A stretch of 64,000 nt of DNA. Source: an uncultured delta proteobacterium (GTDB lineage Bacteria; Desulfobacterota; Binatia; UBA9968). The notes below the pieces were generated by a model. The model was not told the origin of the DNA and ran no database searches. It saw only the letters and a program-made list of their open reading frames with translations. The stretch covers positions 224,001 to 288,000 of the forward strand of contig CAWJZV010000034.1 of NCBI GenBank assembly GCA_963847445.1, written 5' to 3'. The translations under genes were made by a program, and so were the position numbers. This document shows positions 10,943 through 51,897 of this stretch, piece by piece; position 1 is the stretch's first letter, and every line of letters begins with the position of its first letter.

Positions 10943-11335
10943 ATGGCGTCTACCGCAAAGCTGGCGCGGAATACCAGACAATTGGCGATGGTCTGGCAGG
11001 CCATCGAGCATGATCAGTCCCATCCCACTGCCGATCAGGTCTATGACCGGGTGCGGCGCAAACTGCCGAATATCAGTCTCGGCACCGTGTATCGCAACTT
11101 GCAGAAGCTGGTGGCACTAAAAAAGCTGCAAGTCTTGATGCTCGGGCGCTCGCAACATTTCGATCCGCTGGTCAAGCGTCATCAGCATTTTATCTGCGAA
11201 GTTTGCGATCGCGTCTTCGACGTGCTGGTTGAAAGCCAACGGGAGATCCGGCCGGCAAAGCTTCCCGAAGCGGGCTTCACCGTAACCTCGCACCACTCGG
11301 CCTTCTACGGTACCTGCAAGAGCTGCTCTTCCTAG
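10943..11335 (+). CDS. Fur-family repressor (PerR-like)
   Basis: HPTADQVY, ISLGTVYRNL, HQHFICEVC and terminal CKSC. Confidence 0.9.
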   Translation: MASTAKLARNTRQLAMVWQAIEHDQSHPTADQVYDRVRRKLPNISLGTVYRNLQKLVALKKLQVLMLGRSQHFDPLVKRHQHFICEVCDRVFDVLVESQREIRPAKLPEAGFTVTSHHSAFYGTCKSCSS

Positions 11336-42240: not shown

Positions 42241-42741
42241 CTATCGCGATTTCTTCAACATGAAGTCCAAATCTTCAGAGAGCGACTGGAGATCCTCCTC
42301 GTGCGCCACTTCGTCCTGAAGAATTTGCAAAACCATATTGTAAGTGACTGGGTCTTTTGTCTGAGTCGCCTCCAAAAGTTTCTTGTAAAAGCCAATGGCG
42401 CAGCGCTCGCCCTTGATGTTTTGGCTTAGGATAGTCTCGACGAACGGGTCATCGGGCGCGTCGTAGCCGCAACTGGTCACGTCATACCATTTTTTCGGCT
42501 CGGCCACCGGCGTGCCGCCGAGCTGGATGATCCGGGCCGCGACCATGTCGGCGTGACGCAACTCGTCGGTAGCATGTTGCAGCAATTCGGCGATCACCGC
42601 TTCTTTCATCGGACCCTTCACGACCTTGGCGCCCAGCCAGTATTGGTAATAGGCGAGCCACTCATCGGCGAACGCCATATTGAGCAGCTTCAACAGTTGT
42701 TCCACGTCCATGCCGACAATTTCTCTTCCTTTGGTGCCCAT
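42241..42741 (-). CDS. DPS-like (DPSL/thioferritin) ferritin-family protein
   Basis: ADEWLAYYQYW, DELRH, SCGY and ERCAI cysteine pair, DEVAHE. Confidence 0.88.
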   Translation of the reverse strand: MGTKGREIVGMDVEQLLKLLNMAFADEWLAYYQYWLGAKVVKGPMKEAVIAELLQHATDELRHADMVAARIIQLGGTPVAEPKKWYDVTSCGYDAPDDPFVETILSQNIKGERCAIGFYKKLLEATQTKDPVTYNMVLQILQDEVAHEEDLQSLSEDLDFMLKKSR

Positions 42742-42829
42742 AATATTCTTCTCCTGTTTGTTCAATTTTTAGATGCACAACCACCGTGTAATTCCCTTAA
42801 GTATCGGCGATTGATCGCCATCAAGCGAC

Positions 42830-42891
42830 AAGAGCCCGCGCTTCGCCGCAAACGCGAAACGCCGGGCTCTGGGTTCGTGACCGCTGGCCTC
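42830..42891 (-). promoter_or_regulatory. Structured leader element, copy 1 (heptad repeats plus hairpin, no U-tract)
   Basis: AGAGGCC AGCGGTC ACGAACCC AGAGCCCGGCGTTTCGC-loop-GCGAAGCGCGGGCTCT; homologous to 51486-51555. Confidence 0.8.
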
Positions 42892-42907
42892 TTGGTTTAC
42901 TTGACAA

Positions 42908-42923
42908 AGCACTTAGTGTGCCA
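42908..42923 (-). promoter_or_regulatory. Putative sigma54 promoter of the DPSL gene
   Basis: TGGCAC-ACTAA-GTGCT with -24 GG / -12 GC spacing. Confidence 0.6.
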
Positions 42924-43108
42924 CGGCCAATGGCGGATTATCGACGCCGGATCAAAGACAAATTGTCATTGTTGAAAATTTGCGCTGCAAAAAACTTCAA
43001 CTATGGGAATCGCCGGTGTCTTTGGTTTCTGGCCCATAGCTATGTTTGACAGCACGATCTCGAATACAAATCTTTGCTTAGCGATCATCCCACTTGCAGC
43101 TCTAATCG

Positions 43109-51565: not shown

Positions 51566-51618
51566 TGTATATTCAAATCATAATTATTTGTCAATACTAA
51601 TATAAAAATATTAGTATT
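51566..51618 (-). promoter_or_regulatory. Putative sigma70 promoter of the exbB operon with an 11-4-11 inverted repeat at the -35
   Basis: TTGACA-17bp-TATACA; AATACTAATAT-AAAA-ATATTAGTATT at 51593-51618. Confidence 0.7.
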
Positions 51619-51675: not shown

Positions 51676-51897
51676 CTATATATTTCCCAAATCTGCTTCG
51701 GATGCCGCACCATCCTGATTATCGCGGCCCTCGGTACTGAGGGGAATCACTACCCGGCGTTTGCAGCGGCGACACTTGAGCTCCACGCCTTCGGGTACCA
51801 AGCGCGCGAGCAAGCTACCGCAATGGCAGCGGAGCGCATCGCCGTCCTTAGTCACCGTCCCCGCCGTTTCCTGTTCGCCTTGCCTTGGAATACGCAT
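51676..51897 (-). CDS. Com-like (phage Mu Com family) zinc-ribbon protein
   Basis: LRCHCGSLLAR...VELKCRRCKR; ATG immediately follows the FTR1 stop codon. Confidence 0.75.
   Translation of the reverse strand: MRIPRQGEQETAGTVTKDGDALRCHCGSLLARLVPEGVELKCRRCKRRVVIPLSTEGRDNQDGAASEADLGNI

Follow-up and report, generated by a model that had tools for sequence, protein, structure and literature searches.

Why a ferritin-like gene carries the same leader element as iron-uptake genes, and what that element does there, is the question raised by a 64,000-nt stretch of DNA (the window) from an uncultured delta proteobacterium (Desulfobacterota; Binatia). In the eukaryotic IRE/IRP system, sites for one RNA-binding protein are found on uptake as well as on ferritin-family messages. 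A sequence-only reading of the window had noted that the copy of the element ahead of the DPSL gene lacks a U-tract, and had proposed that the same ligand could act there through RNA stability, translation or Rho, giving reciprocal control of storage and uptake as in IRE/IRP, or that the copy is a decayed attenuator. Our results indicate that the DPSL-side feature is genuine, that it is under selection, and that it works by a mechanism other than that of the uptake copies.

The DPSL leader and its counterpart at the uptake genes

Read from the sequence, the minus-strand leader runs from a sigma54-like string through two boxes and a hairpin to a tail without a U-tract and on to the DPSL gene, which matches the layout described earlier (sigma54-like site, element, no poly-U, small hairpin, DPSL about 90 nt on). 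The candidate sigma54-type -24/-12 promoter, TGGCAC-N5-GTGCT (GG-N10-GC), lies at 42923-42908 and suggests a transcript start near 42897. Box 1 (42891-42881), a putative site for the Com-like protein described below, follows the string after a gap of 16 nt and lies 6 nt past the predicted start; across the DPSL leaders, the boxes begin no more than 7 nt from the predicted 5' end. The 3' part of box 2 (42875-42864) is the 5' arm of a GC-rich 40-nt hairpin (42870-42831; -29.1 kcal/mol), which is present in all seven DPSL leaders. In place of a U-tract stands the tail TGTCGC (42830-42825), which could form a second, smaller hairpin with the segment that follows it, 92.7% paired on the alignment with one two-sided pair. 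The small hairpin GGCGA-TCAA-TCGCC (42819-42806) is poorly conserved, its region being 64% identical and the hairpin intact by eye in three of seven leaders; it overlaps the position of a third CAGCG site that six of the seven DPSL orthologs carry 42-61 nt ahead of the start and that is absent in this genome. The Shine-Dalgarno sequence (42755-42751) is predicted to be accessible in both states, and the ATG at 42741 lies 89 nt past the hairpin. The gene (42241-42741, minus strand) encodes a DPSL-type ferritin-like protein of 166 aa (PF00210). Its best PDB match is 2VZB (E 8e-40), which we take to be B. fragilis DPSL, followed by 7STW, 8W1D and 2CLB; both of its cysteines align with 2VZB and its ferritin fold is closest to DPSL structures, and the protein scores below the NCBIfam archaeal DPS cut-offs.

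By itself the sigma54-like string is at chance level, with 31 matches in the genome versus 34 in the reversed genome. The GG-N10-GC motif, however, lies upstream of the boxes in 7/7 element-bearing DPSL leaders at a variable spacer length, its -24 and -12 blocks are conserved as expected of a sigma54 promoter (consensus from the excerpted text of PMC12754779), and the genome contains rpoN. Through this conservation and rpoN, the predicted sigma54 promoter of the earlier reading holds. A conserved block further upstream (42963-42978, minus strand; pairwise identity 89%, 12 of 16 columns invariant in seven leaders) is a candidate enhancer or activator site for it.

The second copy (boxes, hairpin and a 7-T tract; 51555-51486, minus strand) lies between the Com-like gene and a small ORF followed by exbB-exbD-tonB-hemP-receptor genes. 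A sigma70-type promoter, TTGACA-17-TATACA (51566-51594, minus strand), was read from the sequence and has similar -35 and -10 hexamers in orthologous uptake leaders; the site is absent from the list given by a promoter scan of the window. A perfect inverted repeat with 9-nt arms and an 8-nt spacer (51593-51618) abuts the -35 of this promoter, and its ACTAA...TTAG recurs at the uptake -35 in orthologs; it is a candidate operator for a repressor and does not resemble the classical Fur box. Fur boxes sought at the DPSL and uptake promoters with two consensus strings were unconvincing (best 12 and 11 of 19); of the two Fur-family genes in the genome, one falls within the window (10967-11296). The first ORF after the uptake element (51472-51260) is conserved, 70 aa long and without a Pfam or NCBIfam family; it reads fused to exbB here and is separate in relatives.

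The candidate ligand of the element is the product of the Com-like gene (51676-51897, minus strand), a four-cysteine zinc ribbon of 73 aa. It matches PHROG 13819 gpCom (E 0.0024), its homologs carry the name 'phage FluMu protein Com', and C24, C26, C42 and C45 are invariant in 51 sequences, as in a four-cysteine zinc finger. The structure model has a three-strand core (pLDDT about 84), with which a fold search gave no match at E 0.001. None of the 51 Com-like members matches the Pfam Com models at E 0.1, and the gene itself has no Pfam match. A position-weight-matrix scan of the 7.19-Mb genome returned the two element copies at 38.9 and 37.7 bits, with the next site at 17.7, and thus no third copy; the genome has one Com-like gene and only two element sites. 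Rfam gave only a tRNA in the window and a chance match at E 2.5.

Com-like genes and their leaders across genomes

A strict pattern of 25 bases, allowing at most three mismatches, was scanned in 90 genomes of the family. It occurs in 42 of them, every one of which belongs to the 56 genomes that have a Com-like gene; the 34 others gave no match. Kin genomes are not independent in this count. An RNA model matched 60 of the 90 family genomes at E 0.01, and 40 of 55 in a second family. Model matches with E < 1e-4 were also obtained in four genomes in which no Com gene was found (G008, G010, G068 and G109); in G008, a diverged copy (L369:334) precedes a PEP-CTERM protein. The loose pattern, applied phylum-wide to 401 genomes, matched about as often as its reversed control and was uninformative. 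No pattern match was found in viral contigs, and no description of the system was found in searches confined to open-access articles.

The Com-like gene often lies 17-180 nt upstream of the element, the conserved part of which is 28 nt long with little structure of its own. Downstream genes with Pfam names are mostly of TonB, ExbB, receptor, imelysin and FeoB types. No ferritin-like protein was present among the 39 downstream proteins scanned (of 100 listed), and no ferritin-family gene other than DPSL was found behind the element. Two outputs are seen repeatedly. In 113 copies, the hairpin is followed by at least 6 T in 9 bases, forming a terminator. In 14 mostly myxobacterial copies without the tract, the ribosome site costs 15.0 kcal/mol to open, and blocking the boxes is predicted to free it by 3.8 kcal/mol. 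Both outputs are OFF by default. In phage Mu, Com is described as binding a two-part GAG(N)2CC hairpin and melting the inhibitory structure (PMC6483171, in excerpt), so that the natural inference, by analogy, is that binding of the Com-like protein would switch the uptake genes on. Myxococcus xanthus carries a Com-like protein and terminator-less boxes predicted to cover the ribosome site (L159:4249), and such myxobacterial loci offer a culturable test system.

The uptake islands often also contain bacterioferritin-like genes on the opposite strand, the leaders of which lack the element (among the ferritin matches listed, besides which there are 115 weaker ones). They are found antisense inside or at the end of islands (L081:16281-16754, L198:745-1218, L315-L317, L319 and L321-L323), and in G004 and L198 a bacterioferritin-like gene is divergent from DPSL. 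Convergent transcription with antisense bacterioferritin genes could itself couple uptake and storage.

A conserved leader without a U-tract

Between 34133 and 56774 of the window, the metG, holB, TonB receptor and FTR1 genes are in pieces, suggesting assembly indels, so a collapsed homopolymer at the DPSL tail was a real worry. Contigs from three of four runs (three studies) cross the tail with no indel among the differences listed, and the orthologs also lack the tract; the missing U-tract, for which a check of the reads had been suggested, is therefore not an assembly slip. In the six DPSL leaders scored, 4-5 T follow the hairpin in 9 bases. The tail scores of all seven DPSL leaders (-2.8 to -3.8; -3.3 listed for the tail at 42830-42825) are at the level of the random background (-2.9), and almost every one of 63 terminator-type copies has a stronger tail (mean -5.0). 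The DPSL leader thus has the GC hairpin of an intrinsic terminator and lacks the 7-9 nt U-rich tract right after it; judged by eye, no U-run follows any downstream hairpin in the DPSL leaders that could make a later terminator. The earlier reading had suggested comparing U-tracts between storage and uptake leaders. Every DPSL tail is at background level; U-poor copies with strong hairpins (3-5 T in 9) also lie ahead of three non-storage genes (L086:12717, L278 and L282, a count that leaves out the misparsed L384 and L402), and loss of the U-tract is not peculiar to storage genes.

Seven DPSL copies of the element were found, namely in this genome, G003, G014, G077, twice in G004 and in L198. 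Their box 1-box 2 segment is 95% identical (23 of 28 columns invariant) and the 3' arm of the hairpin with the tail is 88% identical, whereas neighbouring leader segments reach 54-64% and four-fold sites of DPSL 63% (five intact genes). Because the boxes are so much more similar than the silent sites of the gene that they precede, the copy is not decaying and is under selection. The hairpin has a pairing probability of 0.99-1.00 in 7/7 leaders; on the alignment its outer helix is 97.6% paired and its inner helix has two two-sided changes. The covariation score was reached by 2 of 500 shuffles, the seven sequences being kin.

Among the best 80 of 574 metagenome DPSL loci, a few of them with little upstream DNA, one has the element. 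The earlier reading had held that its proposal would fall if orthologous DPSL leaders lacked the element, and here the result is divided: seven leaders carry it, and six close homologs with upstream DNA (L199, L200, L202, L203, L261 and G015; 86-93% identical) do not, nor does the gene fragment in G013. A near-consensus sigma54 site is present in all of these element-less loci except G015, a genome with the Com system at another place. A DNA tree puts the genes lacking the element together in a single group (81/88) nested within the close clade. All element-bearing DPSL leaders fit a single origin on this tree, and the seven therefore count as one evolutionary event. In 5/5 genomes, the Com-like gene lies in the same island as the DPSL copy.

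Individual loci differ in several respects. In G004, two tandem DPSL genes (L081:17070 and L082:1005) each have a promoter and an element, and both are frameshifted or stop-bearing as assembled; in G014, a catalase-peroxidase gene follows DPSL. In two runs from different studies, the DPSL leader (42755-42863 of the window) is 42-45 nt shorter. In one of these runs, the third CAGCG lies a few bases before an SD-like sequence (as pieced together from 30 loose letters, with one joint and one loose end), where a bound protein could block the ribosome, a lead favouring repression.

Output of the DPSL leader and comparison with known systems

The DPSL leader is a third architecture of the Com-like/leader system, in which the hairpin is kept, there is no terminator, and the ribosome site is free and distant (104-123 nt from box 2). 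Opening this site costs 3.0 kcal/mol on average, versus 15.0 in the copies that cover it, and blocking the boxes shifts the cost by +1.0 +/- 1.2 kcal/mol, compared with +0.5 +/- 2.0 in 59 terminator-type leaders (p 0.36). A ribosome-site switch that had initially appeared in 4/7 leaders (+1.6 to +2.3 kcal/mol) is at control level and also within the range of shuffled leaders (14 shuffles each, wider window), so the suggested translation route found no support. The Rho route fared no better, the 80 nt downstream being A-rich with C below G in 7/7 leaders. Two further candidates were rejected: an extended spacer-tail stem, 100% paired on the alignment, was equalled in 105 of 500 shuffles and has a probability of at most 0.05 in 7/7 leaders, and a short upstream ORF seen in this genome lacks an SD and, judged by eye, any conservation. 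In vitro, RNA polymerase ran past hairpins devoid of a U-tract and NusG helped at imperfect ones, as described in part of PMC3993855. Since it has no U-tract and its ribosome site is free, the DPSL leader is probably ON by default and would offer no block for binding to relieve. As proposed earlier, the copy, being under selection and lacking a canonical terminator, thus probably works by a route other than canonical termination, and with no occlusion, later terminator or C-rich stretch, RNA stability or titration remain. The genome encodes RNase J, RNase E/G and Rho.

In the mechanism that we propose, the Com-like protein would bind the element right at the 5' end of the DPSL message, transcribed from the sigma54 promoter, in a single Binatia lineage. 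Box 2 of the uptake leaders would form the terminator or cover the ribosome site and binding would turn the genes on, whereas in the DPSL leader binding would melt a protective hairpin and lift a barrier to 5'-end-dependent decay, giving lower DPSL output in scarce iron, opposite in sign to uptake. The anatomy, the conservation, the default-ON layout and the co-occurrence with the Com-like gene are read from the sequences; the binding, its occurrence in low iron, the route of decay and the sign of control are inferred, and we hold such repression in cis to be a tentative possibility. In its favour are the conserved boxes, the tails at background level, the ribosome site that opens cheaply, the co-occurrence with the Com-like gene and the presence of RNase J and RNase E/G. 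Low iron leads to repression of a Pseudomonas Dps-like gene by way of its 5' UTR (PMC13104616, excerpt), and ANTAR sites cause antitermination in some bacteria and a block of translation in others (PMC12591593, excerpt), both of which fit it. Against it stand the absence of a direct sign of repression, the effect of blocking the boxes, which stays at control level, the one origin of the DPSL leaders, the lack of the element ahead of any other ferritin-family gene found, the U-poor copies at non-storage genes and the model matches in genomes in which no Com gene was found, together with reports, in the portions of the papers drawn on here, that RNase J can be blocked by a protein bound to the RNA, which would stabilise the message instead (PMC3799425), and that dpsl of S. 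solfataricus rises upon iron depletion (PMC2739297). Known biology points both ways, Pseudomonas brnD and S. solfataricus dpsl responding oppositely.

Control in the same direction as uptake is nearly as likely as repression in cis. Here the protein would cap and stabilise the 5' end, or relieve a leaky, Nus-aided pause or termination, and DPSL, needing both a sigma54 activator and the Com-like protein, would rise with import to limit Fenton damage. The overlap of hairpin and box 2 exactly as in uptake copies, the start of the boxes no further than 7 nt from the predicted 5' end, the archaeal induction just cited, the help of NusG at suboptimal terminators and the U-poor non-storage copies all agree with this, but the DPSL tail scores at random background, below nearly all 63 terminator-type copies, and a retained U-tract would have given activation directly. 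It is rather improbable that the DPSL message, induced by stress, is a decoy that soaks up the Com-like protein so that uptake leaders terminate, a reciprocal coupling in trans. Strongly conserved boxes for which no output in cis was found would be explained in this way, and one Com-like gene with two sites in this genome, the third CAGCG in six of seven leaders, the catalase-peroxidase gene after DPSL in G014 and the sigma54-driven peroxide-stress genes of Myxococcus (PMC12754779, in part) are compatible with it; against it, the hairpin that hides box 2 is kept, and the boxes cost 17.0 kcal/mol to open, about as in uptake leaders (18.8).

The remaining explanations are unlikely. Recognition of the boxes by some other protein or by a small ligand, the Com-like gene being a mere fellow traveller, would accommodate the four model matches in genomes where no Com gene was found and the spacing CC-N1-G(A/C)G, which differs from the CC(N)2-3GAG of the Mu Com loop, and the assignment of the Com-like protein to the boxes is itself drawn from sequence; we nonetheless regard it as improbable given the co-occurrence (42/42 against 0/34), the frequent position of the gene 17-180 nt upstream, and a conserved part of 28 nt with little structure of its own. 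Equally doubtful is a decayed attenuator without a present role, the alternative offered at the outset: the single origin, the element lost or never gained in six close homologs and the frameshifts or stops in both G004 copies would suit it, and it is disfavoured by 95% identity in the boxes against 63% and by a hairpin kept with compensating changes (2/500 shuffles match the score; the sequences are kin). Least probable, and very unlikely indeed, is an operator in the DNA just past the start site. The boxes do closely follow the predicted start at both types of promoter, but box 2 pairs with the downstream arm or, in other lineages, with the ribosome site, and many copies directly follow the Com-like gene, where no promoter could be recognised.

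Among known systems, phage Mu Com/mom is similar in combining a small four-cysteine zinc finger with a two-part GAG/CC RNA site that overlaps an inhibitory hairpin (PMC6483171, excerpt). It differs in serving phage DNA modification rather than chromosomal iron genes, in its motif, which appears similar and not identical to that of the boxes, in its finger compared with CxC...CxxC here, and in its outputs, which here include terminators and the block-free DPSL hairpin. ANTAR shares a two-part RNA site over a terminator and a position that decides between antitermination and translation block; its protein is unrelated, and its repression site overlaps the ribosome site in the part of PMC12591593 considered, unlike the 104-123 nt of separation here. 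PrrF control of Pseudomonas brnD likewise acts post-transcriptionally on a Dps-like gene via the 5' UTR in response to iron, but the excerpt of PMC13104616 describes pairing by a small RNA, whereas the site here is one for a protein and recurs in uptake leaders. A related group is known to have sigma54 promoters at genes for peroxide defence, as the excerpt of PMC12754779 describes for Myxococcus xanthus PexR; PexR-type repeats (CACCG-n6-CGGTG) were not found within two mismatches in the five element-bearing leaders scanned, four of 11 leaders being unparsed and left out.

With IRE/IRP, the likeness lies in one candidate protein and the same RNA site on both uptake and DPSL messages (two copies here; seven leaders). 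Unlike that system, an IRE hairpin is absent (Rfam gave no match), the candidate ligand, a zinc ribbon of 73 aa, is not of aconitase type, no block of translation is seen on the ferritin side, where the site lies more than 100 nt from the start codon, and nearby bfr genes have no site. The comparison extends no further than a site present on uptake and DPSL messages alike, and the reciprocal control once proposed has no positive sign in the sequence. That a phage-type zinc finger serves bacteria as a counterpart of IRE/IRP, raising import operons by antitermination or release of the ribosome site and lowering a ferritin-like gene through boxes without a U-tract, is accordingly put forward only tentatively.

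Bacteria usually couple iron import and storage via Fur and small RNAs, and control of import and storage messages by one RNA-binding protein would differ from that design. The change of output here traces to some ten bases that follow a single hairpin. Should the sign of control prove to be the same on both sides, the DPSL leader would still be a naturally occurring variant in which binding is uncoupled from termination.
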